A stretch of DNA of 43,076 bases from assembly GCA_964635405.1 (NCBI GenBank), contig CAZWOH010000002.1, positions 1 through 43,076 on the forward strand. Direction: 5' to 3'. This document shows, piece by piece, positions 1-43,076 of this stretch. Positions within the stretch are counted from its first letter, which is position 1; the number at the start of each line of letters is the position of its first letter. Source of the stretch: an uncultured Planctomycetales bacterium (lineage in GTDB: Bacteria; Omnitrophota; Gorgyraeia; Zapsychrales; JANLHA01). A program made the translations under genes and the position numbers. Under the pieces are notes generated by a model. The model was not told the DNA's origin. It saw nothing but the letters and a program-made list of their open reading frames with translations, and made no database searches.

Positions 1-473
1 CAAAGGCCAAGACGGACGCTGGCATCAACCGAGTGTTGAGATTTGAAGATAGACTATTAGGTTATGACTACGTTGGCATCATCAAGAACCTGCCTGACAT
101 GATCGTTCAGATCGTTTCCGTACCGTTTGACTACGTGATTGATTCCCGAGTGAAATTATGGAATGCAAAAGATAGCTTTGGGGCATGGGCAAAAGCCAAG
201 ACGGACGCTGGCATCAACCGAGTGTTGAGATTTGAAGATAGACTCTTAGGTTATGACTACGTTGGCATCATCAAGAACCTGCCTGACATGATCGTTCAGA
301 TCGTTTCCGTACCGTTTGACTACGTGATTGATTCCCGAGTGAAATTATGGAATGCGAAAGACAGCTTTGGGGTATGGGCAAAGGCCAAGACGGACGCTGG
401 CATCAACCGAGTGTTGAGATTTGAAGATAGACTTTTAGGTTATGACTACGTTGGAATCATCAAGAACCTGCCT
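1..473 (+). repeat. In-frame 189-bp (63-aa) tandem repeat, >=2.5 copies, probably continuing upstream of the window
   Basis: Units lie at nt 6-194, 195-383 and 384-473 (partial; it diverges after ctgcct at 473). Nt 1-5 (caaag) match the tail of a unit (gcaaag), so another copy probably lies upstream. Unit peptide: AKTDAGINRVLRFEDRLLGYDYVGIIKNLPDMIVQIVSVPFDYVIDSRVKLWNAKDSFG(A/V)WAK. Copies 1 and 2 differ at 5 of 189 nt (cta/ctc, gca/gcg, gat/gac, aaa/aag synonymous; gca/gta Ala/Val). Confidence 0.9.
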
Positions 474-3400
474 GTTGTGTTGCGGCTTACTCACAATGCG
501 ATTGTTGACGCTTTTGCTAGATTTTTTGTCTGGCTTGTCCTATTTGTACTCGCGCCGAAAGTTTTTCGTTTAAATAAATTCGATGATTTCATCGCTTTAG
601 TGAAAGCCGTATTTACAAATGTCCAAGGGGACAAAGCTGGAATTTTAAGAGCAATAAGAGTTCTCTACGCTTCTGGCGCTTATAAGAGATTTGGCCAAGG
701 CGAATTAGTTCCGCATTTAATCAAATTATTAGAAGATCATCAGGACAATGCAATTATTCATATTGTTGCTTTAACAAAGATGCATCGCAAGACCCGCTTC
801 GGAGCTTTGAAAGGGCTCTTTAGCAAACTACTTCCTTTAAGTCTTTCAGAAAAATTAAGTCAGACAAAAACAAGAATTATCGTCGATGTCCGCAACATTA
901 AAGGCATCGGCGGCGATCGTGATGAAGAAATTTTTATTAATTTATTGGCACTTTCCGCTAACTTAGGTTTACAGCCGGATCAAATTGAAGTTGTGGCAGA
1001 CAAAGAGCAAAAAGTTTGGCGCTTTAGAAATATTGTTTTGCAATTTAATGATGAAGTTGCCGCTGGCCCGCGCCGCGGGATTTTGTATCTTCCTGAAAAT
1101 CTTCTTTCCAGTCAGGATGTCCTGATTAAGTCTAAGATCACAGAACAAAGTGCTGGCTTAGAAGCTCATCCGGCGACGGCTCCGCCGTCCGACGTAAAAC
1201 ATGAACAAATGGCTGCTTCATCTTCCGTCGTTTTACAACCTGCATTTGCAAAAATTTTAGTCGGCGGTGCGATTGTTTTAATGCTTAGCTCGGGATGGTT
1301 TTTGAGCACATTCCCGGCTCTAGGTTCTTTATGGGTCGCATTAGGTTTTGGCGTTGTTAGTAGTCTTCTTTATCTTGTAAGCCGCAATTCACAATCTCCG
1401 ACGAACGTTGGAATTGCCGCTAAAGTTTTTGGCTTGATGGCCATCACGGTTTTGACGACGGCTGGTCTAAAATCAATCGCATCTATTGCTGGAGTAGGAT
1501 CATTGTTCTTAGGGCAAGCAGCGTTAGCTGTTTTTGCAGGTGCTAGCGTAATTGCGTTGAGTGCATGGGCTATTGGATTCTTTAGCAATACGATTAATGA
1601 AAAAGTTATCAAGAGTTTGCGAATTGTTTCCTATCTTGCGATGCTTTTTGCGATGGTGGCAACGGGGATTTTGATTTTAGGGACAGCTTTCCCGGCGGCG
1701 GAAGGAATCATCGAAGGGTCGATGCTTGAATTGATGATCAGGGTTATCGGCGGTCTCTTGTCATTAGCCATCGTGATTTCGATCTTTAAGGGCGCGTTAC
1801 GGTTGACAACCCAAAACGTGAAAGAATTAAATGTCTATCGTTTAACTAATGAAGAGTTAAATATCCGTTTGCGCTATTACGGTACGCTTTTAGGCAACGC
1901 TGGACTTATTCCGCAAGTGCAGGCGATCATCGATAATTCCGATTTGCAAAAGAAGAGAAACTTCTTAATCGATTTGATGCAACGCGATTTCCAAAACAGC
2001 ATTCGCGCTGTTCAGAGCAAACCGACGCGCTTTGTGCGTATCGAAGCTTTCCGTCAGTGGTTACGTGCAAATCGTATTGAGTTTGCCGAAGAATTTATTG
2101 GCGCCTTGCTCTCGACGCTTAATTTTATTTGGAATATCGCCGGCAAATTCCACTTCACGCAAAATAATTCTGGCATTATCCGCAACTCAATTTTATTTGT
2201 GGTCGCAGTTGGATTGAGTCTTATCCCAGCTTTCTTCTTGTTCCTCGGAGAATTAACGTATAACTTCTTTGCTCGTCATGCGGTGCGCACCTATGAATTT
2301 TTGCGTATGCAGGAAGTTCTCTTAAATGCCTCGCAGCCTACAAAATTGACTGCTCAACAAATCAATGCCGAAAACGCTCGTCGTATTCTTAATGCGCAAA
2401 TTGCGGATGCCAATGTCAACAATAATGGACGTTGGTTGAGAGTCAAACGTGAATGGTTTGCTTTCAGCTTGGCGCATCCGATTATGGCCAATGCTTTGAA
2501 TTTGTTCAAAGGCCGTCTTTTGATCTTTATCGTCGCGGAACCTTTGTCGACGATGGTTAAAGCTCTCGCGGTGGGCTTAAACGGTACAGCTTTAGGAATA
2601 GTTTTAATGCCAATTGTTTTCGCTTTGACTTTAATCTTTCACGTTATTAACGAAATTCTTTTAAGCGTCTTTGGTTTGATCGGTGGAGCTTTGGGAGCAT
2701 TCCTTGTGAGCACAATGCTTTCTCATCGCGCTGATAGCATCGCGCGGGTTTTCCTCATGAGCTTTATATTGTCGTTTATTAGTACAGTCAGAACGATCGT
2801 CCACGCTTTTATGGAATATCGTTATGCCGGCCTCGTTGAAAAGAATAAATTAACAGGATTTAAAGATCAAAAAGGTCGTCCCGTCGCGTCGATTGAACAG
2901 ATTGCTTTAGCCCGCATGATTGAGAATCCAAAAGATTTAGAGAGCTGGATGAATGATGCGGCTGTGCGTCAACAGTTCCTTTCCGGATATCTTTATGCCC
3001 AAGATAGCAGTTTAGCCCGCATGGTTATCGGAAATAATCGTTGGTCAGCGCGAGTCAAGATTTATCTTAGCGAAGGCCGTGGTCGAATTTTGGTCTTTGC
3101 TTTGGCTATTCCTGCGGCGATTTTTATTTATCTTTTAAATACCTTTATTCCGTTTAATTGGATTCATAAAGCTACTGGCAAGCTTTTTGGGACAACAGGT
3201 GCTGGTTACGAAAGAATTGATACGCTTTATCAGCAATTAGGTAATCTGAAACTTGCATTTTGGTCAGGTGTCGTCGGTATGATGACGATCAATGCGGAAA
3301 TCGAAGGCGCGCTTCATTTTGCTGATAAGATCGGCGGGACACCGGGTCAAGTGATCACTTCTTGGGAACGCGATGTTCTTAATATGGGACATGCGTTTAT

Positions 3401-6400
3401 GGGTAATAATTCTCAGGAAGGGCTTTATGGACTTATAACGGCCGGCAATAAATTTATTTATGGCCCCGATGGTTTGGAAGTTGGACCTGCAGTGGTGACC
3501 AATGCCATTTATCGTCAGGCGGGTGTCAATACACAAGAGGCAAATGCAGCGCTTTATTATCAGGCTTACCGCGAAGGCCGTATTTCCAGCTTGCCTCCGA
3601 TTGCTTGGACTTTGGCTAAGGATATGGAAAAAAGAACGCATGCGACATTAACGCAAGAACAATTTGCGCGTGTGCTTATTTCTGCCGGCCTTATCGCTGA
3701 TACACGAGATGCCAATGCTAAGGGTAAGGCGCTAAGTCAAGAAGTGCGCGATTTGATTGATCCACATGTGGTTGATTTGATTGAGACAAAGTACCTTAAT
3801 AATGTCAGCAATCTATTTGAGAGAATTAAGATTGCTATTGGTATTCCAGGGCAAGTAGCTGACGGTGATTTGCTTGCTTCTGCGCAAAAATATAGCCAAG
3901 AAAACGATAAGCCGGTTGTGACCCTGCAGCTTTTCCCCAAGCAAGAGTCTGATGTTCGACAAGGAACCTATTTAGTTGTACGAAATGATAAAGAACAAGA
4001 AGTTTTAGTTGTTTCTGCGAATCGCCATGATCCACTTGGCGTTGTTCCTGCCGCGGGGATTATCGATCAAAATAAGGGTAAAGTTTTCACGGCATTTTTA
4101 GTGATTGATTCAAAGGATTTAGTGTCTGCTTTGATGGCTAAGAATCTCGCAGAAACACCGTTAGCTCAAAGTTTATCGGATATGTACCAGCGTGTTGCCG
4201 AAAAAATGGGCTTTAAGCCCGGCGAGGCTATCATTATGTTGCCGCAGCATGTCGGGTTTGAAAAATTTGCCCAAGCGCTTCAAGGCGAGAAGACAATTGA
4301 AGTCAAAGACAAGGAAGAACTTGAGCCTAAAGAGAAAATTAAACCCGGCGAAGAAGTTAAAAACGGGGAAAAAGAGACTCCAGCGATTGAAAAATCGTTT
4401 AGCCTTAACGATATTATTAAGGGGAATAAATTTGATTCCTGGAGAAGCGTTTATTTAAATATTGACGCTTTTGAAGTGATAAGAATGACATTAGGAAACC
4501 TTGGATTGCCGTTGCGCAATAATACATGGGAAGAATTCCAACGTACTATTTCCGTTTTTGATACAGATAAATCGCTTTCTTTTAAAGAAACTCTTGGAAA
4601 AATAATTAAGTTGGATTCGGACCGCATCGATAGCGAAAAACAAATCGCGAAGTTTAAGGATGTTGACAACAATCAATATGCCAAGAAGTTGTTTGAGCAG
4701 AAGAATCTTCAATATCAGTTGCAGGACGCGAGAGATTTAGCGATTGCGGCAGAAACCAGCAGTTGGGAGAGATTTGTTTTGTGGGTAGGGGAGCTCTTTA
4801 ATACAGCAGAGAGCCAGTTTAGAAATGAATTAAAGAATACTCAAAAAACAATAATAAATCTTGAGCGCACACAAGATGCTCTAAAGATAGCTCTTGCTGC
4901 TAATGTTTCCGTCGAAAATATTCGTAATCTGGGTGCTGAGCATTCTTGGTTTGTTGCGCAAGTTGAGGGCATTAATGTTCTTGAGCCTGCTGGCTATCAA
5001 AGACTTAAATCTACTTTGACTCAACGAACTATCCGAGGGAGCATCTTTATTTTAGATATTGATGAAGATGCCCGGGCAAGCATTATAACGTTGTTAAGCC
5101 ATCAAAACACCGTTGACGATAATTTGTACGCCTTGTTGGATCCTTCAAAGAAGACTGCTGCTAAACCTGCACTTTTAAATGGCTTGCGCTTAGCCATGGT
5201 AAATGCTGCTCAGCAAGAAGAAAAATTATGGAATAGTAATTCATCATTAGCTACGACCATAGCAAAACAAAAAATGCTTGCGGCGAGTGTTAACGCGAAT
5301 GCGATGAGTGTTCATGATTATTTTAATGCTTTGACAAAGAATTCCGATCTTCCGGCTGAGAAATTTGTCGATATGAAAAAGACGGCTTTAGAAAGAATCA
5401 GCAAGACGATAAAAGAACTTAACCTTTCTTCTCAGATGCAGATTGAAGAAACTACTTTTGTTTTAGCTGATATTTATACGAAATTATCTAAGGAATATCA
5501 GAAAAATTTGATGGTCCTTCAAAGCAGTAAAGAAGCTTTATTAAATAGTAATAATGACGAAGAGAAGAAAAATCTGCAGGCCCGCATAACGGGTACGCAC
5601 CAACAATTAGATACAATCGCGCAAGACTTAAAGTTGTTAAATAAATTTAAGAATGAATTAGCCAAGACAAATGTTTATGTTGCAGAAGATATTCTTGGTG
5701 CGCAAGAATTGTACGAATCGGTTGCACAACCGGCCTTGACTGTTTTACTCGATTATGATGCTGGGAAAGTTAGCTTTGCGGATGTCCGCTCAGTATTCTC
5801 AGTGATCAATGCGAAAATCGAATTATTAAATATTAAACATGAAATATTTATTACTAGAAATAAGATCGACAATTTGGAAAAAACGCCAAGCCTCGAGGAA
5901 GCAAATGTTCAAAATCCGAGTTTGTCTAACGCTCGCAATGAAGTTAGAAAGGCAGAAGCTGATGTGGCACGTACACATCTTGCCTGGTTGGAGGCGATAG
6001 TAGCTCAAACAAGTCATGGAAATATCGCTGACCAAAAAGAGCAATCTGCTCGCGTCTCTGATCCAAAAGCAGAAAAATTGTCAGCAGCTCCTTCGTCCCG
6101 CGCTGATGGGGCTGACAGTGCTTATTATGGTGTTGTTAACAGTAATGGTGAGCTTAAAGAAGCAGCAAAAATATTAAAAGACGTCTGGGCTGGCAAGGAC
6201 TCAGAACTTTTGGTTCGCGGCTTAACGTATTCAAAGGTTGTCGGGTCAGATTACAGGAACGGGTTTGATTGGGACAAAAATATTGGCGATATCCAAAAGT
6301 TAAAAGATATGGGTGTTAAAACGATTCGGACGTATTATCCGATCACCTCCGAGCGTTTTCTCAATGAATTAGCCAATCAGGGCATCAAGGCGATTATCGG

Positions 6401-9400
6401 CATTCCTAATTATGATGATCGTTATAATCCAGGCCCGGACATTAGCCGCGGCGGATATAAACATTATATTGAGAAATATAAAAATCATCCTGCAGTTTTA
6501 ATGTGGGAATTTGGGAATGAATACAATTACCATCCGCAATGGTTTAATGGGAATGTTGATCAATGGTATTCCATTTTGGAAAATGCCGCTGGTAATGCAA
6601 AACGCATTGATCCGATGCACAAAGTTTCGACAGCCCACGGTGAAGTTCCTTTAGCTGGTGTTTTACGTCAGGTTCCGTCGGTCGATGTTTGGGGGCTTAA
6701 TGTTTATCGTCCAAATGTTTCGGATGTATTCAGCGATTGGAAAAAAGCGGTTACAGAATCTGCAGCGCGCAAAGACCTGCAATTCTATTTTTCTGAAACA
6801 GGGGTTGATTCATTTGATTGGGCTGAAAGAAAAGAAGATCAGGGTAAGCAAGCTCGTCACATGAAAAATATTTGGAATCAGGTGCAGATGCAAGCTAAGA
6901 CTCAGCCTGGTGTTTTCTTAGGGGTAACATTTATGACTTTTGCGGATGAAAGTTATAAATCGGAAAAATCAGATGACAAAACTGCTTTAGAAAAAACCTC
7001 TTTGTCAGCAAACCGCAACGGACAAAGCAATCGTGAAGATGCGAATTTGGTTATTGCGCAAGAAGCGGTTAGAAATGCGCAGGCGGATGTTGTTCGTGCG
7101 CAGCAGACCAACAAGCAAATAATTCAAGCCCTAGCTGCATTAGAACAAGCTCAAAAACAAGTTCTATTGATTTATCAAAAACGGTTGGATTTAGTAACTG
7201 CTGTCGAAAAGGCACAGAAAGAAGTCCAATTGGCGTTTAACAATGGTGATTTAGCCGCCTACACGAAAGCCACTTTGACGCTCGCTATAAGCGCATATCA
7301 AGCTGGTTTTAGCAATGATCGCGATAAAGCCAATTTGCGTAAGCTACTTATTGAAGGAAGTATTCTTCCGATACTTAACGCACCGATGGTCATTATTGAG
7401 CAGCAGGACATTAAAGCGCTTAGAACGCAATTGCGTGATCAGTTAACTGAGCTTCTTCCGCGTTTATCAATTGACACTTTAATTAAACTTCAGAAAGCAC
7501 GTTCGAGTGAAGATATTCTCAAAGTCGTGATGCACGATTATTCTGGGCTTGATACGGCGACCAAACGGCTGATCGATGAAATTAATACCGTCTTTTATCG
7601 TCTCGAGGGCCGCAATAATATCGGGAATTCTGCTCCGCTTGATCGCAATGAAGCGCTTTTCTTGCCCGGACAAGGCGGAACATTTAGTGAATTAGACAAG
7701 CCGATTATTCCTTTGATTAATGGCGTTATAAAGAGCCGTTTCCCCGATGTTAATGTTCATGATTGGTGGACGAGATTTGCGATTGTCCAAATTCATATTG
7801 AAAGCAATGGTAATGCGTCAGCGGTCAGTTCAGCCAAAGCTCGCGGATTGACTCAGGTTACCGAACCAACATGGAATCGGACAGTGGATTACATGGTTGC
7901 TCAAGGAATTATTCCTAACCGTAATGGCTGGTCATTTGCTGATAATGCCGATAATCCGGTTAAGAATTATATGGTTGGGCATTCGTATCTTGCCATTATT
8001 ATTAAGGAAATTGATCGTAAGTTTGCTGGTAAAGTTTTGACCTTAAGTGAATTTACGAATGCCGTTTCAGCTGCTTACAATGCGGGCGAAAATTATAGCG
8101 CCGCTTTCTATTTAAAACCGACGATTGATGAAACTGTTAAATATGTAGCCAAGGCGGCACATCTTTTAAAACACATGACAACGGATGAAAACGGTCGTAT
8201 CGTTTCTCTGGATGAGGCGGGACGAAAGGTCTTTTTCACTCGAACACTGGCTGCTTTGCGGATCAAATCTGACAGCATTAATAATAAAGATTTTGATCAG
8301 CTTGCCGCCAAGTTCGACGGAACAACCCTTTCTACAGAAGATTCCAGCAATTATAAAATTAAGCCGCAAAGCAGCGATATCGGCCCGCTGCTCGAGATGA
8401 TCGTTCCGCAAAAGTCTGCGGTACGCGCAATCTTAAGCGGTATTGTTACTCAAGTTGCGACTACTCCTTATGGCCAGTATGTCAAAATTTCTTCGATGAT
8501 CAACGGACATCGCGTTGAGCAAATCTTTGCTTATATGGGTGGTGCTTTGAAAGCCGAAAAGGCCTTAGGCCAAGAAGTTAAGGCGGGTGCTTTAATTGGC
8601 ATGTCTGGTTTGCAACAAGGTGCTAATCGTTATCTTTTTGCCCTCAAGATCGACGGCAAAGCGGTTGATGTGATGAGCGTTAATGAAAAAGAAGACGGTT
8701 CTCTAAAAACGATTCGCACGATGGTCGCTAAAGCTGTGCAAGACAATTTTAACGCGCTTACCGGTCGCGCCACGATCAAAGTTATGACACCAGAAGAACG
8801 CGAAGACGCGATGAAAGAAGATTTGGCTAAGATACGTCAAGATGCAGAAGACAGGATGGCTGCTTTAGATTTATTGCGTAATCGCAATGATGCGGAGCGT
8901 CAAGAAGTAGCGCGCAGGAACGCTGCCGTGGATATGGTGCGCGCTATTGCGAATACTGCCCGAACTCATCCCGAAACGGCTTTACATGACATGGTCGAAG
9001 AATTAGCAAAACTTGATGCAACAAGCAATGGAAGACTAGGACACGGTGTTAGTATTCAACTGAGATTTAATCCGGCCGCTCTTGGCTTAAATGTTGGAAT
9101 TGGCCGGCAGGCTGTTTGGGGTGGATTGAATTTATCGCTTGTCGGTACCGGTGAATTCTTTACGCTGGCAGAAGTTGTCATGCAGACAAAGAGTCTTTTA
9201 GGTCCTCCTGCCCCGGGTGTTTCCTCTGCGCAGAGAACGCTTGGCATCTTGTTCTATGTGGATGCCTTAATGAGTGTTTACAATTCATTGGTGGAACGTT
9301 CGCTTAACTTAGAAGAATATGGCGGGATCGGAATGGATCAGGGCACCAATCCGCTCTTTGGACGCACCAAGATTATTGTCAGCCCAGAAATCAAAGGCAA

Positions 9401-36400: not shown

Positions 36401-39400
36401 ACAATTTCGTGTTTTGTTAACGAATTCTGGTGCAAGAATTTTAGGCGATTTGCCGTTTTTCCGTTCTTTGGATGGCACGGATGCTTATTATCATAAGGAA
36501 TATTTTGTGACAGAGCAAGGGCGCATTGTAAGCCCGGGCATTGATAATCAAGTTTGGGGAGATTTAGCAGCGTATGATGAAATTGGTATTGAGAAATGTT
36601 GTTCAGAAGGCCAGATAGATCCAAGGCTTCTTGTGATTATTTATTGGCAGCACATCTTTGAGAGAGTTTTTGATGATCCTGTTCCCAAAATAGCCGGCTG
36701 GCGGCTTGATGCGTTTCATTTTTTTGGGCGTGGTCCTAATGCTCGACGGGTCATTTGGACAAGCCGGCTTTGGGATGATATTGCTTATTATGCACAAAAG
36801 CATAATCTTTTGATGATGACGGAACAATTAGGAGGTGATGACACAGCATATGAAAATCTTAAGAGGTTGGGTTATTGGCAAATGGAAGTTATACGGTCTT
36901 GGGGGAGAGGCAGCACGGTTGAATTTTATTATGGGAGACTATTTGATGCTAGCCGCAAAATTGCTTATACAACGGCCGAAACGCATGATGTACAGCGGTG
37001 GGCGGCAGAATATCTTGAGGACTTTATGCGCTTGGCAAAAACGAACGATAAGGCTCAGGCGCTTGAGCTTTTGGGTCCTGCCTTTTTGGGCTTTTATATT
37101 TTGGGCCCGCGAGCGGAAGCAGTGTTATTAAGTTTGAGTGATATGGCAACTTTAGATCCGATCAAGCGTGAAGTGTATAACGAAAAAGGCATGGTTGTTG
37201 GCTCTCAATGGGGCACAGAAAAGATTGGGTCGGTGGATCTTTCTGAGATGATACGCAGTTGTGTGGATATTAGAGAAAATCATCTTGCGATAAGCCGCTC
37301 TGAAATGATTTATCTTGCGACGGGTGATGTGCACGTGAAGGCTTTTCTTAAGAGATATGAAAGCGATGTTCTTGTGGTCATGGCTAATTTTAGCAATATA
37401 CAGAGACTAGCTCAAATTTCACTTTCAAGTTCGGATTTGGGCTTGGAGTTTCTCAATAGAGATCAGCATTCTGTTGTTGTGCAGATAGAAGATTTGATAA
37501 GTGGGCAGATTTATCCGCCGCAAGACTTGGGATTAGAGAATTGGATAGAATTTAAACCTTTTCTTGTCCCCGGACAGTTGGCGGTGTTTCATATGCAAAA
37601 CAAGTTAACAACCATTGCCGCCTCAGCGGTCAAAGAGGCAACAGCAATTTTTTCCGATAATTCCATACTTTACGAAGCCACACTCCTTAATCAAGTTGTT
37701 TCTTATACCAGAGCTGTTTTAGCCGCAAACGACAATATTCTTGGGACAATGATGTGCTTTGCAGCCTCCTTTTATACTCAAAAAGTAGCTAAAGATTTGA
37801 TAAATGATGACACTAGTATTATTAAAGTACTTAATATTAAACAACTTTTATCATTTCCTACCGCTGCTTCTTTTATGGGACATGCTCTGGTTTTTGTTAT
37901 TTTTAAGGACAGCCAAAGAATATATCTGCTTGACCCAACGATACAGCAATATATTTCTTCGCATGCGGCGTTATTATTAGAACCGCGCAGTGATTTTCAT
38001 GCGAGACTTTATGCGGTCCTTTTGAGCAATGGTTTTGTTCTTTATTCAGGGCATGAAATACAGATTATTGAGATTTATGCGAGAATTATTCGCATGGGTG
38101 TATATGCCAACCCGCAGCAAGTTTCTCGTTTGGTGGAGGATGCTGAAAGTTCGCAAGAACCGGTCTCTTACGACTATCAAAGTTTATTTTTAAATCCTGA
38201 TGTCCAGACGTATTTATCGCTTGTCAAAAATATTTATAATCAATCTTTGAGAGCCGAAGTTCATGGAAAAACTATTCATCAAGCGATGGTGCGAATTTTA
38301 AATAATGCAAAATTATCAGCGCAAGGCAGAGATATTGGCATTTTAGTTGACTTGGCCATCAAAAACGCCAGCGCGCCTGTGACCGGCCCGCCGGCAAGGG
38401 AAATTGTTGGTGCTTTGGCCGCCTCGTTTTTCTTTTTAACGAGCCCCAGTTTTTCTGCATCGTTTTCAAAATCCGTATTGCCAGATTCCGTAGCGCAAAT
38501 CACAGAGTCTCAAAAACAAATCCTTCAAACAGCACTGCCCGGCGTGTTGCCTGCGCTTTCTTTAGCGTTTAAATCGACATCAGATAATAAACCTCAAATG
38601 AGCACAGATTTAGGCCCATTAGTTCTTAATGGCATCGATCCGGATATGTTTAAAAATGTCAGAGAATTGCGCATTATCGCCGCTGGCGGAGGTGGCGATG
38701 TCGATAGCGCGATTCTTCTGGCTTTAGGGTTGCGTCGAATTCTTGGCGAAAATATAAAGATTGTTATTTTTACGACCAACGTCAAACACGCTAAAGAAAA
38801 CCCGATGGGCTGGCCGCTTTCCGTCGGAAATATCATTAATATCAGAACCGGTCAGCCGATTAAGCCTATCCCGGGCACGGAACATTTTTATCGCATTGTC
38901 CCCGGGCTTATTGTTCGAAACGAAATTTTGGATGATACCGACCGACCGTATCACGCACAAGTCCCGCTTTCGGATAGTCAGATGGTTGCTCTTGGGCTTC
39001 CGCAAGGAATTGAACTTCTGATGATCGATGTCAGTCAAAGCGCAAAAGATTTAGCCCAAGATTATTTACGCTCGCAAGGCGATGATGTTAACGCAAAAGA
39101 GCGTGTTCTTATCAGTCTTGATGTCGGCGGGGACAGCCTTGCGCGGTTCCCATACTCAATAACTTCACAGAATAAGCCGACGCATCCGGAGCGGTTTATT
39201 TGCTCGCCGGTGACAGACCTGATTATTTTGAATATGGCACGAGAAATTGAACGCGTTTTAAAAACAAACGTCTTCTGGGCTGTTTCGGCTTTAGGCGGCG
39301 ACGGAGAATCAACGCCGAAGGTGCTTGAGTATATGCGCGAATATTATGCGGAGCAACAGATCGTTGGCGTTTTGGATAATATTCGTTTGTTTAATGAATA

Positions 39401-42400
39401 TATAACCCGTCAAGATGCCCTTGTTTTGTATCAAGCGCTTGCGACGATACCCAGTGAAGTTTCAGGAAACCTTTTAAAACGTCTCTTCGCCATTTCTCGA
39501 CGGCTTGATGAAATTCGTGGATTAGTTGATCGGCAACAAAAGGTAAAACTTGTGCGTTGGGTGATGCGATCGCAATATTCTCAGCAAGGTTTCCATCCTC
39601 AACAAATGTTTGACGCCAATTATATGACACAGGCCCTTGCCCCAACATTGGCAGATTCACTGAGAAATGGGACTCGTCGCGAGTTATTGGCCCGGGCGTA
39701 TCCGTTGACAGTTTTCTTCTGTCCGTCGTCGATTGCGTCAAAAGTTCGCAATCGTGATTTTGGCAACGCTAATTTAAATTGGGAACAAATGGAAAGGGCT
39801 CTGCGGAAATTTGGTTACACGACGGAAGTGTCTGATTCGCAAATGATTCGCGAATTGCAAAAAGAAAAGACTGCTGCAGTTGTCGTTGCCGCCAGTTCGG
39901 TTCTTTTATTAAGAATTTTTGGCGGTAATCAAGAACTTGTTGAGCAATATTTGCAAAATGCCATGGCGACTTTAGATCTAGACAGGCCGCAGGTGGAAAA
40001 CGGAATCTTTGCTCCTTCTTTGGCCGCAGAGAGCCGAAAAGACGCCGATTCCTATATGCAACAGGATTCGGCAGTCGGTCTGTGCTTAGGCGGCGGGACA
40101 GGGATGATTTATCTGATTAATGCACTTCGTGAAGTTTTCCCAAGAGAATATGCAATAAGAGCAGGGCTTGCCGCTATTGATAATGGAGGTTCAAGTCATG
40201 CAATGGCAGAAGGTCTTCAGGCGGCTGGCTTTGGAGTCCCTTATCCTTTCGCGGATCTTCTTAGCCAATTGCAAGCGCTTTCAACTTTGGATAAATCCTA
40301 TCGTATTTTGGATCCGCAGGGCCGCGTGCAAGTAACGACACTAGACTCTAATCTGCCGGAAGTTGACGAAGAAGGTCATGCTCTTAGGGCAGGACAAATT
40401 GTTTTTTATGACGAGAATAATAGCCCTATTTACTTGGAAAATTTTGAGGAACTTATTATTCGTTTACTTGAACGTATCGTCAAAAATTTCTTGCCGAAAC
40501 AACAGTTAAGTGATGATTTTATCTTTTTTGCCATAAGCCTGCTTAATCTTATTGATTTGGTTAAGCCATATATTGAGAAAGGCTATATCAAATTGCCGGG
40601 TTTAAGCATACGAAATCTTTTGCCGATAGCTGTTATGGAATACATGGGGCTTATTGACGTCGATAATCCTAAGTATAAGCAGGGTGCGCGCAAGCTAATT
40701 GTTACTAATCAAAAAGATATGCATCGGCTTGAAAAAGGTCTTGATCTTATCGCGCAGATGATGGGAGTTCGTCAAGGCCGGGTACGGCTTTCGCATCTTT
40801 ATCCCGAGATGGTATATGCGATATATGCGGACTATGTGATTTTAATAGACAATCCAGAAAATCAACAAAAAATTATTCTTTTGGTCCGTCGAGAAAGTAA
40901 AAAATGGCTTGTGCGCGTTTGGGGAGAAGATGCTCAACATTCTGCTAATTTTGCGGGAGAACGTCTTGAAATTTCGTTGACTGACAATTTATCTATATAT
41001 TTTGAGGGCAATTTAAAAGGTTTTATTTTTTCTTTGCAAGCGCAAAATGGGCAGATACAGATATTTCAAGGATCGAAAAAAGCGGTAAGTCTTGTGGTTT
41101 ATAAAAGTAAAAAATATTTGATGTCTGATGACGGAACAGGGAGGCTAAAGCGTCTGGGGGGAAAGGACGCCTCCTATGAAGCTTTAGAAATTAACGGTTA
41201 CAGCGTGTATATTCGCTCCCCGATTATAGTAGGGCAGACGCATATTACAGAGACGGCTAATTATTCCCGTATTGTAGAATTTGGTCTAGCCAGACCCAGA
41301 GGTTCAAACGGTCGAATCACGTATAAACCTGATCCGAAAAGACGCGCGGCAGCTAACAGCGGATTTTTGCAAAGCATACTTTCACCAAATACAAAGTTTA
41401 TAACTTTAGGTCCGGGATCCAGACTTACGAGCAAGAAGATTCATCTTCTTGTCGGCGGCATTTCAGAGGCTTTAGCTGGCCGTTGTAAACGCAGTGATAT
41501 CCCTATTGTTTTATTTTTAGGGCCGACTTTAGATAATGAAAGTTTTGGGGATAGACTTATCATGGTAATTGAGAGGCTGGAAAGAACATTAAGGACGGAT
41601 TTTAATAAAAAACCGATATTTACAGATTTGGTTATTGCTCCTTTGGATACGAGCACGCTCGAATTTGCGTATAGCGTAGTCGGTCCGCAGCCTGTTGGTT
41701 GGTATATCGAGAAATTATTAAACGACGATGACAGTATTAAGCAAGCTGTTATTTCAGATTTAGATTTGCGCTATATACAGATGCTTATCGAAAACTATCG
41801 TGCTCAAGAGCATTTTGGGCAGGCGATTGTGGATATTGATGGCGCAGAGATTTGGTTAGAAGAAGGCTACAGGGCCGTTTCGCTTCGCGATTATCTTACG
41901 TTTAAAATCGCGCAATTTTTAGATTGCGTCAACCAAGAGCCTAAGCCCGAGATACGCCAACCCGGCGATCCTTCCAAGGAAGCCAAAAAGCCGCGCGGTT
42001 CATTTACGCCTTCGCCTGCAGAACTTGTAGAATTTAAAAGACGGTATCCAAATATCCGTGTTTGGACAGATGTTTTTACAACAGGAATTATATTTACGCC
42101 GCCACGCGATCCTCGTCAGCCGCCAGCGCCTAAAATCGGTTACGTTAAACATAATCCAGAGCGTCTGCGAGAACTTTTAAGGCTTCCCGCATCGGAAACG
42201 TCCGTCGCCAGCTCGGGAGTTATTCATAATTTGGCCGCGAATCGTCAAGAGGTCATTGAAACGGCGATCAGTGAGTTTGTCCGCCTTGGCATGGAGTCCG
42301 TCGAAAACACAGATAGCTTTATTGTCCTTCTTCCCGGCGGAAAAACAGCGCGGGATTTTTATTTAGTTTTTGCGGCGCGAGTTAAAGAATTGATGAGTGT

Positions 42401-43076
42401 TAATTTAGATTCCCTCAGCCAAGCCCAAAGAATTGATCGCCAGCATTTAGAAGCCTTATTGCCCCAGACGGTTTTTATTTCTCTTAATACTTCTATCCGC
42501 GACGGAGAGACAGACACACAAACAGTTTGGTTACCCTTACTTGAAATGTTAATGACTTATGGCTTGATCACGCCAGAACAAATTTTGCAGATTGACTATC
42601 GTGGCCCGCAATCCCCAGAGCAAAAAGCTTTGGATTTGCAAAATGCCATTGCGCAAAGACTTAAAATACTCAAAAAAGAGAAAGTGGACTTGGCCCTTGT
42701 CGGTATCGATGAGAATGGCCGCTGGGCTGGAATTGAGCCGCAGGATAATGGCGCGTTGGATTCGAAGCAGATGTATATTCACAGTGAAGAGACAACCCAT
42801 TACACGGTTACCCCCCATTTCATTTTAAATAGAGTCAACCAAGTTATAGGTCTTCTCTCTGGCGGGAATAAGCGTTGGGTGGACATGCATTTAACGACAG
42901 ATAATCCGCCTGATCGGCGCGATGTCCCAGTAGTCGATTTGCGAAATCATCCTCACGCGCTTGTGATTATTGACCAAGAAGCGCGCACTTTTCCGACGGA
43001 AATAATTTCTTATTTCGACTCGGTTAGCGGTCAAAGGCTTGAGACTGAAATTTATTTAAATGCCGCCAGAGGTGTT
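3..43076 (+). CDS. Single giant ORF, partial at both ends (>=14,358 codons); membrane-anchored multi-enzyme megaprotein
   Basis: Hand translation of frame +3 gives only sense codons from nt 3 to nt 43076, with no TAA/TAG/TGA. I checked it codon by codon at nt 3-480, 4440-4500, 17160-17240, 25020-25080, 33000-33060 and 43020-43076. Independent support: no + strand ORF in the supplied track starts at a coordinate = 0 mod 3. That is only possible if this frame has no stop at all, since otherwise ATG..stop pieces would be listed. The other five frames are broken to <=171 aa. Differences between internal repeat copies are almost all synonymous third-position changes in this frame. About 20 enzyme-family signature motifs read in this frame. 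Confidence 0.9.
1242..3160 (+). other. N-proximal membrane region: about 11-12 predicted transmembrane helices in the giant ORF
   Basis: Runs of 19-33 hydrophobic residues, for example:
- AKILVGGAIVLMLSSGWFLSTF (1248-1313)
- ALGSLWVALGFGVVSSLLYLV
- VGIAAKVFGLMAITVLTTAGL
- IAGVGSLFLGQAALAVFAGASVIALSAWAIGFF
- IVSYLAMLFAMVATGILILGTAF
- VIGGLLSLAIVISIF (to ~1790)
- ILFVVAVGLSLIPAFFLFLGEL (~2175-2270)
- LLIFIVAEPLSTMVKALAV
- ALGIVLMPIVFALTLIFHVINEILLSVFGLIGGALGAFLVSTML
- VFLMSFILSFISTV (2511-2810)
- ILVFALAIPAAIFIYLLNTFIPF (3084-3158)
A further weak hydrophobic segment, FFVWLVLFVLAP, lies at ~510-557. Confidence 0.7.
4440..6060 (+). other. Long alpha-helical / coiled-coil-like segment, preceded by a K/E-rich low-complexity linker at ~4287-4395
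   Basis: About 540 aa rich in E/K/Q/L/A/N with few Pro/Gly and heptad-like spacing, e.g. QFRNELKNTQKTIINLERTQDALKIALAAN, LQARITGTHQQLDTIAQDLKLLNKFKNELAKTN and ARNEVRKAEADVARTHLAWLEAIVAQ. The linker peptide is KTIEVKDKEELEPKEKIKPGEEVKNGEKETPAIEK. A second helical stretch lies at ~6990-7450 (AQEAVRNAQADVVRAQQTNKQIIQALAALEQAQKQV). Confidence 0.4.
6120..6960 (+). other. Clan GH-A (TIM-barrel) glycoside hydrolase module, GH17/GH5-like
   Basis: The motif NHPAVLMWEFGNEYNY has the acid/base Glu codon at 6519-6521. The motif YFSETGVDS has the nucleophile Glu codon at 6795-6797, 92 residues downstream. This is the typical clan GH-A NE...E spacing. Flanking strands also fit: GVKTIRTYYP, GIKAIIGIPN and GVTFMTFADESYKSE (GH17-like FxxFDE motif). 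Confidence 0.6.
7730..8170 (+). other. Lytic transglycosylase (SLT / GH23 family 1-like) module
   Basis: The peptide AIVQIHIESNGNASAVSSAKARGLTQVTEPTW has the catalytic Glu codon at 7800-7802 (ES...S..GA.GL.Q motif). It is followed by GHSYLAIIIKEI and SAAYNAGENY (AYNAG motif, nt 8073-8093). Confidence 0.75.
8395..8690 (+). other. Degenerate LytM / peptidase M23-like beta-barrel module (metal ligands not conserved)
   Basis: The peptide AILSGIVTQVATTPYGQYVKISSMINGHRVEQIFAYMGGALKAEKALGQEVKAGALIGMSGLQQGANRYLFALKIDGKAVDV follows the M23 core pattern (G.V....YG..V.I.H......Y.H.....V..G..V..G..IG..G.tG...GPHLHFE....G..VDP). However, RYLFAL replaces HLHFE and no upstream HxxxD motif is seen. Confidence 0.55.
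13010..15305 (+). repeat. Six divergent protein-level tandem repeats of ~126-140 aa (unnamed domain)
   Basis: Anchor motif F[VI]xx[YF]YG occurs at nt 13413 (FVDRYYG), 13791 (FVEKYYG), 14211 (FVNRFYG), 14622 (FIKHFYG) and 15018 (FVENYYG). Spacings are 378, 420, 411 and 396 nt. Each unit continues ...GTVF...F[IV]....G.I.I.GEPV..DGK..W..G.QVFKL.....I.L..G..IPAGTVLE.G. A more degenerate unit precedes them at ~13010-13330 (...AGRIEVTGEAV...QAVFKLKLTRDLVINGVVVLPAGSILESG). Confidence 0.75.
15561..15770 (+). repeat. Copy A of a ~65-aa helical motif (dispersed protein-level repeat)
   Basis: Copy A reads GIITKQQFIDAGLDAEKIINALIDREWMENISETNVRLIQNVEAIRGQLKKLFPADFEKIFSILEQSQ. It aligns with copy B at 16891-17100 through the shared pattern GLD....K.I.N..W.......L.I.........Q....F..DF..I.S...QS. 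Confidence 0.45.
16891..17100 (+). repeat. Copy B of the ~65-aa helical motif
   Basis: Copy B reads VQIKKVGLDWNDVSKKLIENGWATKIEQDKLKIDLEMDLEKKKGQMLAVFGKDFPTILSMIQQSR. The GLD anchor is at 16914-16922 here and at 15594-15602 in copy A. Confidence 0.45.
19308..19425 (+). other. Isolated hydrophobic segment (one long TM helix or a helical hairpin)
   Basis: FALKVLGPGLLWVVAAIFGIPAVYYALIAFALWFYRVVMG has ~32 consecutive apolar residues with a central GIP. It is the first strong hydrophobic run after nt ~3160. Confidence 0.6.
21110..21620 (+). other. TM cluster (about 5-6 helices) preceding the glycosyltransferase module
   Basis: Hydrophobic runs: HYILFGSVTGLFVYLSMHAVGYF, VSASITLPTAMLGVPIFVLLSLLFFGVVLKAI, LWLQIFYGGQLVILAVLFILGISGVAV and IIPVSIVLAIPDAIKQILLFIPYLIFIATWRLSFYAANYFFMGIATWG. 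Confidence 0.7.
21620..23470 (+). other. Soluble (predicted cytoplasmic) processive glycosyltransferase module with GT2-type catalytic motifs and FKS/GT48-like flanking motifs
   Basis: - LLTVDADHRA: D-x-D codons at 23016-23024.
- PLGDVVPVGENAFYF.
- YVAEDIETVLRYRGFGY: ED codons at 23301-23306.
- QARNPTRKWSYDS: (Q)xxRW-like, ~23400-23440.
- WANARSQKRTLTKLYSYYAQMF at 22551-22619, upstream. From memory this resembles the fungal Fks1 / plant callose synthase motif WAS.RSQTL.RT..G.MNY..A. Confidence 0.65.
23510..24320 (+). other. TM cluster (about 7-8 helices) following the glycosyltransferase module
   Basis: Hydrophobic runs: FILDGFGFYF, YIKWLVVFSLILDWNLFSGLALGLWVGALLLSQAISFGLLFY, GFWRGLWLTFKMVSGKMYWFYLYML, AGALWLLVSLVAIGFHPF, VLWILTLLFPLAALIAPYVF, MLAAIPVLGIISGAILWAGSWVLGLAWVELLILYV and VWHILLGFFWGLTDVIMAA. 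Confidence 0.7.
25110..25200 (+). other. Last predicted TM helix in the window
   Basis: TFIALFVYAFMVPMAILTGVLSILKRILVGL. No comparably hydrophobic run occurs between here and nt 43076. Confidence 0.55.
26250..26760 (+). other. DUF218 / YdcF-SanA-ElyC-like module
   Basis: The peptides DLVVAGNDDLNTLRAVVELFSNGVGQRIIILGGFG (26250-26357), ISEAQIIKQIMFQII (26502-) and RIVIEESSTNTLDNYKKYHDFL (26601-26630) match the DUF218 pattern (vvLGg..., sEA..m..., E..S.nT.eN). Confidence 0.5.
27990..28400 (+). other. JAB/MPN (JAMM)-like module, tentative
   Basis: YHWLAWIHTHPYYSNIDH has its HxH codons at 28188-28196, followed by S-x-x-D (SNID). A second SPGD lies at 28308-28319. The spacing is atypical compared with the canonical HxHx7Sx2D. 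Confidence 0.3.
28840..29330 (+). other. SpoT/RelA-type HD (HD_4) phosphohydrolase module
   Basis: SYLVHILDGLLIL has its His at 28929-28931. AIAAFYVHDTGER has its HD at 29007-29012. DLLILVKLADRIQNLLSD has its Asp at 29253-29255. This matches the RelA/SpoT hydrolase pattern H...(24)...HD..ED...(60-70)...vKLADRLhNmR. No adjacent (p)ppGpp synthetase motifs are recognised. Confidence 0.6.
29880..29933 (+). repeat. Copy 1 of a dispersed 54-nt / 18-aa element (GFKQQLTEWLSKFSGAPP)
   Basis: Copy 1 is ggctttaaacaacaattaacagaatggttgtcgaagttctccggcgcgccaccg. Copy 2 (35424-35477) is ggatttaaacaacaattaacagaatggttgtccaagttctccggcgctccgccg. They share 50/54 nt. All 4 differences are synonymous third positions, so the peptides are 18/18 identical. 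Confidence 0.9.
30830..31400 (+). other. HAD-superfamily phosphatase module, subfamily IIB-like (Cof / sugar-phosphate phosphatase type)
   Basis: - Motif I: LVLFDLDDTLSHG (DxD codons 30855-30863).
- Motif II: VVFGINTGA.
- Motif III/IV: NKGKSTLALISKLGIKKQSVIYVADFPGSEDKKQAGIDDSML. Confidence 0.55.
31840..32800 (+). other. Aminoglycoside-phosphotransferase / choline-kinase-fold (protein-kinase-like) small-molecule kinase module
   Basis: RGDLIIKMY has its Lys at ~31974. The Brenner-type motif FVLNHGDWSPWNILVD has the catalytic Asp at 32451-32453 and Asn at 32466-32468. The metal-binding motif LVTGIDGEDILSAPPERDIA has its Asp at 32508-32510. This is the classic APH pattern HGD....N.l....g....iDwe.a....p..Dla. 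Confidence 0.65.
32830..33070 (+). other. CBM48 / AMPK-beta-type glycogen (alpha-glucan) binding module
   Basis: VFRVAIFDSNAHVQIAGSFNNWKPSSVDWQPVTTNTGTLVALEARLSLVAGEYAYKFIIDGRWIADS matches the pattern V.v.GsFnnW......m........f...l.L..G.y.YKF.vDG.W..D. Confidence 0.65.
33170..33760 (+). other. HAD-superfamily phosphatase module, subfamily IA-like
   Basis: - Motif I: VIGFDLDDTLYNS (DxD codons 33195-33203).
- Motif II: IFLLTNNS (~33510).
- Motif III: LKPNPEGF (~33610).
- Motif IV: ILYMGDNLRNDSD (~33680-33706). Confidence 0.65.
35424..35477 (+). repeat. Copy 2 of the dispersed 54-nt / 18-aa element (GFKQQLTEWLSKFSGAPP)
   Basis: See copy 1. The flanks are also related at protein level: QDEEALVA / QDQDAVVE upstream, and a V/I-rich strand ending in SP about 20 aa downstream (VLVVSSP / PVIVSP). 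Confidence 0.9.
35570..35930 (+). other. Probable beta-sandwich (Ig-like / E-set) module immediately upstream of the glucanotransferase
   Basis: Alternating-polarity strand pattern: VPGQEFFVDIVVQTNGSVKQNQLRVELFTNMNHSGSWTPIEVNLENISLISKGKAGHFYHAHVILQARQPGKFAFTARAKISDQKEFVWVGGDATVKV. There is no family-specific motif, so the call rests on composition and position only. Confidence 0.3.
35930..37600 (+). other. GH77-like 4-alpha-glucanotransferase (amylomaltase / disproportionating-enzyme-like) module
   Basis: - FFLSPFFPTSNVSPFSAVSVYVLNPALIDW (36058-36150; compare the GH77 pattern P......SPYs..S.fa.NP.lID).
- ARILGDLPFF (36438-36461).
- AGWRLDAFHFF, nucleophile-position Asp at 36708-36710.
- LLMMTEQLGG, acid/base-position Glu at 36822-36824.
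- TAETHDVQRW, third carboxylate at 36987-36989. Confidence 0.65.
37640..38050 (+). other. Transglutaminase-like / papain-fold module with a Cys-His-Asp triad pattern
   Basis: GTMMCFAASFY has its Cys at 37755-37757. SFMGHALVFVIF has its His at 37881-37883, 42 aa later. RIYLLDPT has its Asp at 37932-37934, 17 aa after the His. This fits the transglutaminase-core pattern G.C..fa......(~40)..HaW.ev.....(~15)..Dpt. Confidence 0.45.
38640..39350 (+). other. DUF1152-like module (tentative)
   Basis: LRIIAAGGGGDVDSAILLALGL (~38670-38735), VLISLDVGGDSLARFP (~39103-39150), FICSPVTDLIILNMA and AVSALGGDGES (~39280-39312). From memory, the GGGGD ... DvGGD ... SP.aD pattern matches Pfam DUF1152. Confidence 0.35.
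40070..41560 (+). other. YvcK / CofD (UPF0052, 2-phospho-L-lactate-transferase-like) module with a large internal insertion
   Basis: GLCLGGGTGMIYLINAL (GGGTG at 40089-40103), LAAIDNGGSSHAM (~40170-40210; compare YvcK tVaDDGGSSGrL) and KFITLGPGSRLTSKKIHLLVGGISEAL (GPGS..TS at 41409-41432; compare iviGPGSLYTSvlPnLlv). The two halves are ~400 aa apart, against roughly 190 aa between the corresponding motifs in B. subtilis YvcK as I recall it. Confidence 0.65.
42230..43076 (+). other. NagB / 6-phosphogluconolactonase-like (sugar-phosphate isomerase fold) module, cut by the window edge
   Basis: Matches to E. coli NagB as recalled:
- FIVLLPGGKTARDFY (~42320-42365), against l.lPtGgTP...Y.
- VDLALVGIDENGRWAGIEP (42686-42740), against GG.G.DGHIAFNEP.
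- QVIGLLSGGNKRW.
- LRNHPHALVIIDQEA, against LQLHPKAIMVCDE.
The catalytic-position His is Arg here. Confidence 0.55.

Follow-up and report, generated by a model that had tools for sequence, protein, structure and literature searches.

Genes encoding proteins of at least 10,000 amino acids (aa; 10 kaa) have been described in the Omnitrophota, Elusimicrobiota, Planctomycetota, and other phyla, with a maximum length of 85,804 aa, the designation "giant" being reserved for products from 30,000 aa upwards (West-Roberts et al. 2023, bioRxiv 10.1101/2023.11.21.568195). The described products combine numerous transmembrane (TM) helices with SLT domains, glycoside hydrolases (GHs), peptidases, glycosyltransferases (GTs) of families GT5 and GT1, and sugar-phosphate enzymes. 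In the published reading, the outer enzymes attack the wall of a host or prey; the authors speculate that the wall degradation products are turned into storage glycogen, and they raised a possible cleavage of the polypeptides by C39 or S8 domains (West-Roberts et al. 2023). A later survey counted 3,650 proteins of at least 10 kaa in its corpus and 5,761 including NCBI metagenome-assembled genomes (MAGs), with a maximum of 147,155 aa (Nielsen & Lui 2026, bioRxiv 10.64898/2026.06.07.730766). It defined a "multi-enzyme metabolic cluster" class (class 1) with a sugar-metabolism module including HAD; approximately 94% of such proteins are membrane-targeted, their sequences are mostly singletons, and long open reading frames (ORFs) are systematically cut at contig ends (Nielsen & Lui 2026). 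Here, a stretch of 43,076 nucleotides (nt), positions 1 to 43,076 of contig CAZWOH010000002.1 of assembly GCA_964635405.1, derived from an uncultured Planctomycetales bacterium with a GTDB lineage in the Omnitrophota, was analyzed and is hereafter referred to as the window. The window most likely represents an internal fragment, coding for at least 14,358 aa, of a genuine giant gene whose product, a multi-enzyme protein crossing the membrane several times, is of the kind known from the Omnitrophota, the Planctomycetes-Verrucomicrobia-Chlamydiae (PVC) group, and the Elusimicrobia.

An earlier sequence-only reading had reported that one stop-free frame fills the window completely. Re-translation of frame +3 (nt 3-43076) indeed yielded 14,358 codons and no stop. 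Because TAA, TAG, and TGA are all lacking in this frame, the result is independent of the genetic code. The remaining five frames are interrupted by 804, 1,348, 595, 640, and 979 stops, with at most 193 consecutive codons being open. In the mechanically generated ORF list the longest entry encodes 171 aa (34145-34660, minus strand). As the sequence-only reading had recognized, the giant frame is missing from this list, because ORFs running off the window ends are not recorded. The frame is longer than the uninterrupted 30 kb or 10,000 codons that serve as the lower limit for large prokaryotic proteins.

Coding periodicity, proposed as a check, is retained throughout the window. The period-3 peak of the Fourier spectrum exceeded the background 8- to 25-fold in 28 out of 28 slices (1.5 kb each), the bias towards RNY codons (purine, any base, pyrimidine) was always highest in frame +3, and the GC content of the codon positions followed the order GC1 > GC3 > GC2. 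The copies of the tandem repeat at the 5' edge differ at eight sites, seven of which are synonymous third-position changes; taking approximately one quarter of random changes as synonymous, the chance of observing at least seven out of eight is estimated at ~4e-4. In an alignment of 1,016 codons with the sole close relative found (L001, a contig of 9.3 kb from a MAG with the label "uncultured Planctomycetales"), the nonsynonymous and synonymous divergences (dN and dS) amounted to 0.35 and 1.41, corresponding to a ratio of ~0.25, and the identities at codon positions 1, 2, and 3 were 0.68, 0.76, and 0.49, respectively. Furthermore, several domains in the ORF exceed curated Pfam thresholds. Frame +3 is an uninterrupted coding sequence over its full length and is under purifying selection, as had been concluded earlier from the predominantly synonymous differences between the repeat copies.

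The earlier statement that neither separate genes nor RNA genes occur is likewise in agreement with our results. No Rfam family at gathering score and no tRNA gene was found in the window, and promoter- and terminator-like sites were present at the level of shuffled sequences (34 observed vs 37.6 expected, 22 vs 20.5, 41 vs 44.2, and 21 vs 19.4). In-frame ATG codons preceded by a Shine-Dalgarno (SD)-like motif occur at only four sites, none of which is situated at a module junction. A ranking among the largest prokaryotic gene products, as had been suggested, is not tenable in view of the 3,650 to 5,761 published proteins of at least 10 kaa and the two maxima given above. A 43-kb stop-free ORF per se is of minor importance today, since catalogues list thousands of genes for products of 10-147 kaa in the Omnitrophota and their kin, and the truncation of giant genes at contig ends is a recognized artefact of short-read assembly. 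The window opens within the array of 63-aa repeats, which comprises at least 2.5 copies and is a plausible cause of the contig break.

Amino acid i of the ORF corresponds to nt 3i to 3i+2. Approximately 25-30 TM helices were predicted by the Kyte-Doolittle method, i.e., about one per 500 aa, and their clusters (Table 1) set off three parts, namely a TM-free block of 5,390 aa, a membrane core, and a TM-free tail of 5,960 aa. About ten distinct families are arranged along the chain, none of them repeated more than once or twice, and internal repeats account for approximately 5% of the length. The sequence-only reading had described real and diverse enzyme domains along the whole length. The domains are real, but recognizable ones make up only approximately 14% of the ORF and are confined to two regions; for approximately 85%, no Pfam or NCBIfam family was obtained, relaxed thresholds and a rescan of the dark regions at Pfam E-values up to 1 included. 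Three motifs noticed by eye were dropped for lack of Pfam support, namely an HD motif of the RelA/SpoT type (near aa 9748), one resembling JAMM (near aa 9396), and an additional HAD (near aa 10280). The GC skew is positive in every 2-kb stretch of the window (0.06-0.23) and never changes its sign.

Table 1. Features of the window and of the encoded protein; nt coordinates refer to the window
Feature	Coordinates (nt)	Strand	Evidence
Single ORF, 14,358 codons, no internal start or stop	3..43076	+	Stop count; period-3/RNY; dN/dS ~0.25 vs L001
Tandem repeat at 5' edge, 189-nt (63-aa) unit, 2.5 copies, 97% identity, in frame	1..474	+	Tandem Repeats Finder (TRF)
N-proximal cluster of ~14 predicted TM helices (aa 166-1047)	498..3143	+	Kyte-Doolittle; without Pfam match
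TM-free block of 5,390 aa with cell-wall/glycan hydrolases and repeats (aa 1048-6436)	3144..19310	+	No hydrophobic segments
Clan GH-A TIM-barrel glycoside hydrolase, nearest GH158 (aa ~2095-2320)	6285..6962	+	PDB 9oro, E 1.3e-6
SLT lytic transglycosylase domain (aa 2597-2697)	7791..8093	+	PF01464, E 4.6e-12, 46 bits vs cutoff 21.3
Peptidase M23-like domain (aa 2800-2889)	8400..8669	+	PF01551, E 5.2e-6, 27.0 bits, just below 28.7-bit cutoff
Six diverged ~130-aa repeats, ~23-38% identity (aa ~4272-5060)	12816..15182	+	Tile self-BLAST, phmmer, alignment
Membrane core (aa 6437-8398), predicted TM segments at aa 6437-6475, 7074-7192, 7860-8062, and last 8367-8398, soluble loops between	19311..25196	+	Kyte-Doolittle
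FKS/GT48-like glycan-synthase candidate module (aa ~7640-8100)	22920..24302	+	Three-member alignments; sub-threshold PDB/Pfam matches
TM-free tail of 5,960 aa with sugar-phosphate and alpha-glucan-type enzymes (aa 8399-14358)	25197..43076	+	No convincing TM segment
Eight of nine ASS[SAGVT][AVILGT] junction motifs (aa 8495, 9564, 9867, 11041, 11759, 11852, 13297, 14069)	25485..42221	+	9 observed vs 0.58 expected
APH-type kinase fragment (aa 10808-10874), then CBM48/AMPK-beta glycogen-binding module (aa 10955-11012)	32424..33038	+	PF01636 E 2.4e-6; PF16561 E 1.6e-6
HAD-IA phosphatase module (aa 11059-11243)	33177..33731	+	PF13419 E 1.6e-19; TIGR02253 E 7.6e-21; PDB 2hoq
Dark module without family, strongly conserved (aa ~11290-11760)	33870..35282	+	Dense invariant columns in L001 alignment
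Divergent GH77-like 4-alpha-glucanotransferase, N-terminal beta-rich part (aa 11852-12540)	35556..37622	+	PF02446
DUF1152 module (aa ~12890-13158)	38670..39476	+	PF06626 E 6.3e-9, 35.9 bits vs cutoff 27
YvcK/CofD-related module, weak (aa ~13362-13830)	40086..41492	+	TIGR01826 E 1.4e-4, PF01933 E 8e-4, both sub-cutoff
6-phosphogluconolactonase (6PGL)/glucosamine-6-P deaminase (NagB)-like module (aa 14069-14358)	42207..43076	+	PF01182, 28.7 bits vs cutoff 27

In a word-index search of the C-terminal 5,000 aa against 5.8 billion clusters (E-values up to 1e-5), no match was obtained. A HMMER search with aa 11290-12489 (1,200 aa) against 1.84 billion representatives returned 16 proteins, all of which match the GH77-like half only, with identities of 23-40% to this module. 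Among the ten top-ranking relatives, all six for which a source is named originate from Candidatus Omnitrophota MAGs. GDE_N and GDE_C are present in all four Pfam-scanned relatives of this module (P0001, P0002, P0003, and P0005), and GH77 in three of them; P0003 additionally contains a response regulator and a HATPase. One of the Omnitrophota relatives is a complete gene for 5,183 aa in an ordinary neighbourhood. Over aa 11050-12548 of the window, L001 shows identities of 56% and 48%. Its modules occur in the order unmatched N-terminal region, HAD, conserved dark module, GDE_C, GH77-like, GT5 starch synthase, and GT1, with GDE_C representing an insertion of 530 aa relative to the window. A frameshift in L001 falls on a scaffold gap of 10 N and was rejected as a biological feature; otherwise, L001 consists of a single frame. 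At its edge, a stop (nt 17-19) precedes an ATG (nt 23) from which 505 aa lead up to the HAD module; this ATG may be a real gene start at a module boundary or contig-edge noise.

Relatives of the membrane core were found in two other giant ORFs. P0017 (7,525 aa) is encoded in the Elusimicrobia MAG ELM_99 (GCA_022072025.1; 95.5% complete, 0% contamination) from an anammox reactor. At this locus (L003, nt 10001-42362) the P0017 gene is followed, after a gap of 80 nt, by a separate gene for a 3,234-aa protein containing GT5 and GT1. ELM_99 thus has separate genes for the membrane giant and for the giant with the alpha-glucan enzymes, whereas the corresponding parts of the window are situated in one frame. 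The locus L005 (Ga0315279_10000206, contig range 87577-108683) spans 21.1 kb of a 127-kb contig and consists entirely of a single open frame (7,035 codons without a stop). It shares with the window, in the same order, the GH barrel, a block at aa 6322-6868, and the membrane core, the distance from GH to core being ~1,650 aa in L005 and ~4,000 aa in the window. Furthermore, co-linearity between L005 and P0017 extends over more than 3,000 aa. Except for an HHH_3 motif (ComEA-like) that lies ahead of the membrane core, L005 is nearly devoid of Pfam matches; a HhH-like stretch resembling this motif was noticed by eye at aa ~6478-6515 of the window.

Relatives known in full or over long stretches proved to be large or giant ORFs with alpha-glucan enzymes (GDE, GT5, GT1), either in frame or in the adjacent gene. 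The occurrence of the same modules fused in one frame or split between neighbours fits operon fusion or fission at module boundaries. The labels of the relatives span the Omnitrophota, the Elusimicrobia, and the Planctomycetales, plus one metagenome contig, and by its modules the window falls within a loose lineage of predicted giant envelope proteins. Cysteine accounts for 0.13% of the residues of the window ORF. Its content ranges from 0.05 to 0.26% in the window ORF, P0017, gene 2 of L003, P0006, P0002, P0005, and L005 (0.12-0.26% in P0017 and L005), and is mostly 0.7-1.2% in the shorter or partial relatives checked, a few of which are also low.

The TM-free block upstream of the core is presumably extracytoplasmic, judged from the location of peptidoglycan, the substrate of SLT and M23 domains, outside the membrane and from a bias of positive charges at the flanking TM segments. 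Besides its nearest match to GH158, the GH barrel shows weak matches to Pfam Glyco_hydro_2_C and to an NCBIfam beta-galactosidase, and a block homologous to this barrel is present in L005. In case of the SLT domain, a weak match to EmtA was obtained in addition to PF01464.

The membrane core is partly conserved and co-linear in P0017 (aa 7310-8017) and L005 (aa 6322-6868 and 7467-8018), with 26-33% identity over ~290-700 aa. Its most conspicuous part is the candidate module of the glycan-synthase type, whose counterparts are located at aa 5774-6260 of P0017 and at nt 9989-11410 of L005. Three motifs are invariant in the window, P0017, and L005: D-x-D (aa 7672-7674), followed after 91 residues by A-E-D (aa 7766-7768) and after another 37 residues by R-K-W (aa 7806-7808). 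The loop carrying them precedes the TM cluster at aa 7860-8062, and the pattern was recovered in 4 out of 500 shuffles of the whole ORF. The motif spacing is somewhat reminiscent of D,D,D,QxxRW, the signature by which processive GT2 synthases are characterized. In P0017, a weak match to the GT2-family profile PF13632 covers the candidate catalytic stretch. Against 177,635 distinct PDB sequences, the core-only profile matched FKS1 and GSC2 only, at E-values of 0.15-0.5 and thus below significance, pairing YVAED with HLNED and Y.K.GKG with YYQCGKG of FKS1 (residues 1148-1263); profiles of the whole module gave no PDB match. Among Pfam families, PF02364 (GT48) ranks first for all three members; its matches fall on the neighbouring TM part and within the same region of the profile, with sub-threshold E-values of 0.003, 0.29, and 2.6. 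The gathering threshold of PF02364 (37.2 bits) is not reached by the window (9.6-9.7 bits, E ~0.3), P0017 (16.3 bits, E 0.003), or L005 (6.6 bits). The likeness of the core to FKS/GT48 is a consistent lead below threshold rather than a demonstrated membership. To our knowledge, GT48 is essentially eukaryotic.

The tail is presumably cytoplasmic, considering that its enzyme families act on phosphorylated or nucleotide sugars and that a charge bias exists at the flanking helices. PDB matches of the CBM48 module (a carbohydrate-binding module, CBM) are to the CBM of AMPK-beta, and the HAD module is 56% identical to its L001 counterpart. For the dark module of ~470 aa situated between the HAD and GH77-like modules, neither a match among the 1.84 billion representatives nor a Pfam family was found; it is common to the window and L001 only and is a putative lineage-restricted domain. 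The GH77-like module reaches the gathering threshold of PF02446 (30.8 and 34.1 bits vs cutoff 25) over profile positions 36-99 of 465 only, and its NCBIfam scores are far below the cut-offs. In case of the 6PGL/NagB-like module a weak TIGR01198 pgl match was obtained, and the ORF runs on past this module off the window. A segment of ~70-85 aa ending ...GFKQQLTEWLSKFSGAPP is duplicated in the tail at 44-51% identity (aa 9936-10019 vs 11782-11859; nt 29808-30059 vs 35346-35579), and this duplicated segment also occurs in L001.

Several module junctions are marked by a short ASS motif, which is present nine times in the window (nt 1215, 25485, 28692, 29601, 33123, 35277, 35556, 39891, and 42207). 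Except for the copy at aa 405 (nt 1215), all of them are located in the tail. L001 contains the motif twice (aa 482 and 1227) compared to 0.16 expected occurrences. Usually, T or S is found before and V or I after the motif. It is situated 20 aa ahead of the DxD of the HAD module, which it precedes in the window and L001 alike despite unlike upstream modules, coincides with the onset of the homology of relatives to the GH77-like module (aa 11850-11856), and directly precedes the 6PGL-like module. Different codons are used at different sites, which indicates selection of the motif at the protein level and led us to reject a DNA-level recombination signal. A general feature of giant proteins was rejected as well, since the motif is lacking in the 17 more distant relatives scanned, P0017 among them. 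It could serve as a flexible linker or be a site of proteolytic processing.

For the complete protein, the outer block with its GH-A, SLT, and M23 domains would cut cell-wall polymers, either those of a host or prey or of the own wall. The multi-pass core, which may be a glycan synthase of the processive type or a translocase, would link both sides of the membrane, and the cytoplasmic tail would interconvert sugar phosphates and an alpha-glucan polymer of the glycogen type. Such a protein would constitute an "operon in one polypeptide", built by fusing neighbouring genes at module boundaries. This function is proposed with less confidence than the nature of the gene. Several points weigh against the reading as a giant multi-enzyme membrane protein, among them the approximately 85% of the ORF that match no family. 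The domain matches are far below equivalog cut-offs and do not fix specific activities, and the topology is a prediction from a hydropathy scan and the positive-inside rule only. AlphaFold2 (AF2) models of the GT48-like module (single sequence) and of the ~130-aa repeat (six-row multiple sequence alignment) were unusable, with predicted local distance difference test (pLDDT) values of 41 and 53, respectively. SecA-DEAD had no match in any tile at E-values up to 0.01 (up to 1 in rescanned regions), which is not decisive for a truncated gene. In Pfam tiles over the 14,358 aa, HEAT, TPR, methyltransferase, and NUDIX domains were not detected, which for HEAT is not decisive either. GT5 and GT1 were not found in the window tiles either, again not decisively; they are present in L001 and in the gene beside P0017. 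C39 and S8 peptidases were not detected in the window, their expected location, the N-terminus, being outside it. Taxonomic placement is indirect because the relatives bear three phylum labels, and the expression of the ORF as one chain is putative.

The last point is where a polyprotein or "fused operon" would differ from a single giant chain, as its product would be cut at the ASS motifs, or translation would be initiated internally, to release enzymes of ordinary size. The excess of the motif in the window (9 vs 0.58) and L001 (2 vs 0.16) with varying codons, its position at the starts of the HAD, GH77-like, and 6PGL-like modules, the split of modules over P0017 and the next gene, and the possible gene start at a module boundary of L001 are consistent with this idea, as is the cleavage by C39 or S8 raised for the described giants (West-Roberts et al. 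2023). However, the motif was defined post hoc and is lacking in the 17 more distant relatives, a Ser-rich flexible linker accounts for it equally well, and no protease domain was detected in the window. Internal initiation is at odds with the four SD-like sites, none at a junction, and with promoter-like sites at chance level. Altogether, we consider a polyprotein improbable. An assembly artefact, i.e., a chimeric or mis-joined contig with an unreal open frame, could be suspected due to the near-identical tandem repeat at the start of the window, a typical trouble spot of assemblies. Random joins, however, would not keep a single frame free of stops over 43 kb, the codon statistics are uniform, the repeat copies differ synonymously and thus are not stutter, and the module order recurs in independent assemblies (L001, L005, and P0017), which makes this explanation very improbable. 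The commonest giant genes in cultured bacteria encode nonribosomal peptide synthetase/polyketide synthase (NRPS/PKS) megasynthases and repetitive adhesins. The block of six ~130-aa repeats would be in line with an RTX, Ig-like, or dockerin-type adhesin, but repeats make up only ~5% of the ORF, and in no tile was a match found to condensation, adenylation, ketosynthase (KS), acyltransferase (AT), acyl or peptidyl carrier protein (ACP, PCP), cadherin, Ig-like, RTX, dockerin, or TSP3 domains; membership in one of these classes is extremely improbable. Assembly artefact, NRPS/PKS, and repetitive adhesin are effectively excluded.

A further alternative concerns the purpose of the protein and departs from the published reading, according to which the outer enzymes of such giants are directed against the wall of host or prey (West-Roberts et al. 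2023). Instead of a predatory weapon, the protein may be an envelope polysaccharide machine, in which an FKS/GT48-like or GT2-like core would export a beta-glucan made from cytoplasmic sugar nucleotides, and the outer GH158-like glucanase, SLT, and M23 domains would remodel the cell's own glucan and peptidoglycan. The invariance of D-x-D, A-E-D, and R-K-W in three giants which are only 26-34% identical, FKS1/GSC2 as sole PDB matches of the core profile, and PF02364 as top family of three out of three members argue for this idea. Moreover, the outer GH is nearest to GH158, a beta-1,3-glucanase family, and L005 carries it in co-linear arrangement with the synthase-like module; the CBM48, GH77-like, and YvcK-like modules would suit the handling of sugar nucleotides and glucan. 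On the other hand, all GT48 signals are below significance (E 0.003-2.6; 9.7 bits vs cutoff 37.2), the full-module profile is without a PDB match, and no usable structure model was obtained. The GH call is generic to clan GH-A, with Pfam and NCBIfam favouring GH2 and beta-galactosidases, and the cytoplasmic enzymes are of the alpha-glucan rather than the beta-glucan type. We therefore regard the envelope machine, in both its synthetic and its remodelling part, as a doubtful possibility that deserves attention, and retain the internal fragment of a giant gene for a multi-pass multi-enzyme membrane protein as the preferred reading.

Going one step further, one may speculate that a bacterial FKS/GT48-like core defines a lineage of giant envelope proteins across Omnitrophota-like and Elusimicrobia bacteria, here fused to an outer glucanase, SLT, and M23 and to a 6-kaa tail, with modules set off by the ASS motif as maybe a processing site. 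This rather unlikely scenario, if true, would imply a self-contained machine for the synthesis, export, and remodelling of a polysaccharide that arose by operon fusion, and would place a relative of eukaryotic beta-1,3-glucan synthases among the prokaryotes. Irrespective of its function, the near-unique sequence of the window is an addition to the "dark" space of giant proteins, and the fused versus split modules among its relatives provide concrete evidence for giants growing by operon fusion. The GT48-like core and the ASS motif, which are undescribed in the giant-gene papers, may offer handles on export and processing.

Compared to FKS1/GSC2 of fungi and the callose synthases of plants (GT48), the core of the window likewise exhibits a putative cytoplasmic catalytic stretch followed by TM helices; these enzymes are eukaryotic, whereas the candidate module forms part of a bacterial giant. 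The type of the Archaeovorins, a giant protein of Velamenicoccus archaeovorus, comprises 39,678 aa. Hallmarks of Archaeovorins are a divergent SecA DEAD/preprotein-binding domain, HEAT repeats as the commonest domain besides TPR, methyltransferase, and NUDIX domains, GT5 and GT1, and an N-terminal C39 or S8 peptidase close to a signal peptide (West-Roberts et al. 2023). Numerous TM regions, SLT, GHs, peptidases, and enzymes of the sugar-phosphate and glycogen type occur in Archaeovorin-type proteins as in the window, in which cell-wall-degrading domains are represented by SLT (E 4.6e-12), the M23-like domain (27 bits), and the GH-A barrel. Due to the undetected SecA-DEAD, HEAT, TPR, methyltransferase, NUDIX, and GT5/GT1 domains and the missing N-terminus, the window was not filed as an Archaeovorin. 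Closer agreement exists with the multi-enzyme class 1 of the Omnitrophota: an ORF of at least 10 kaa with many families and no dominant repeat, a sugar-metabolism module (HAD in the window, GT5/GT1 in its relatives), membrane anchoring (by Kyte-Doolittle in the window), a near-unique sequence, and truncation at contig ends are common to both. The window differs from this class in being a fragment and in the labels of its relatives' MAGs, Planctomycetales for the nearest relative and Elusimicrobia for that of the core, and the description of class 1 contains neither an ASS junction motif nor a GT48-like core (Nielsen & Lui 2026). On its predicted domain content, the window is therefore assigned to the broader kind of multi-enzyme giants.

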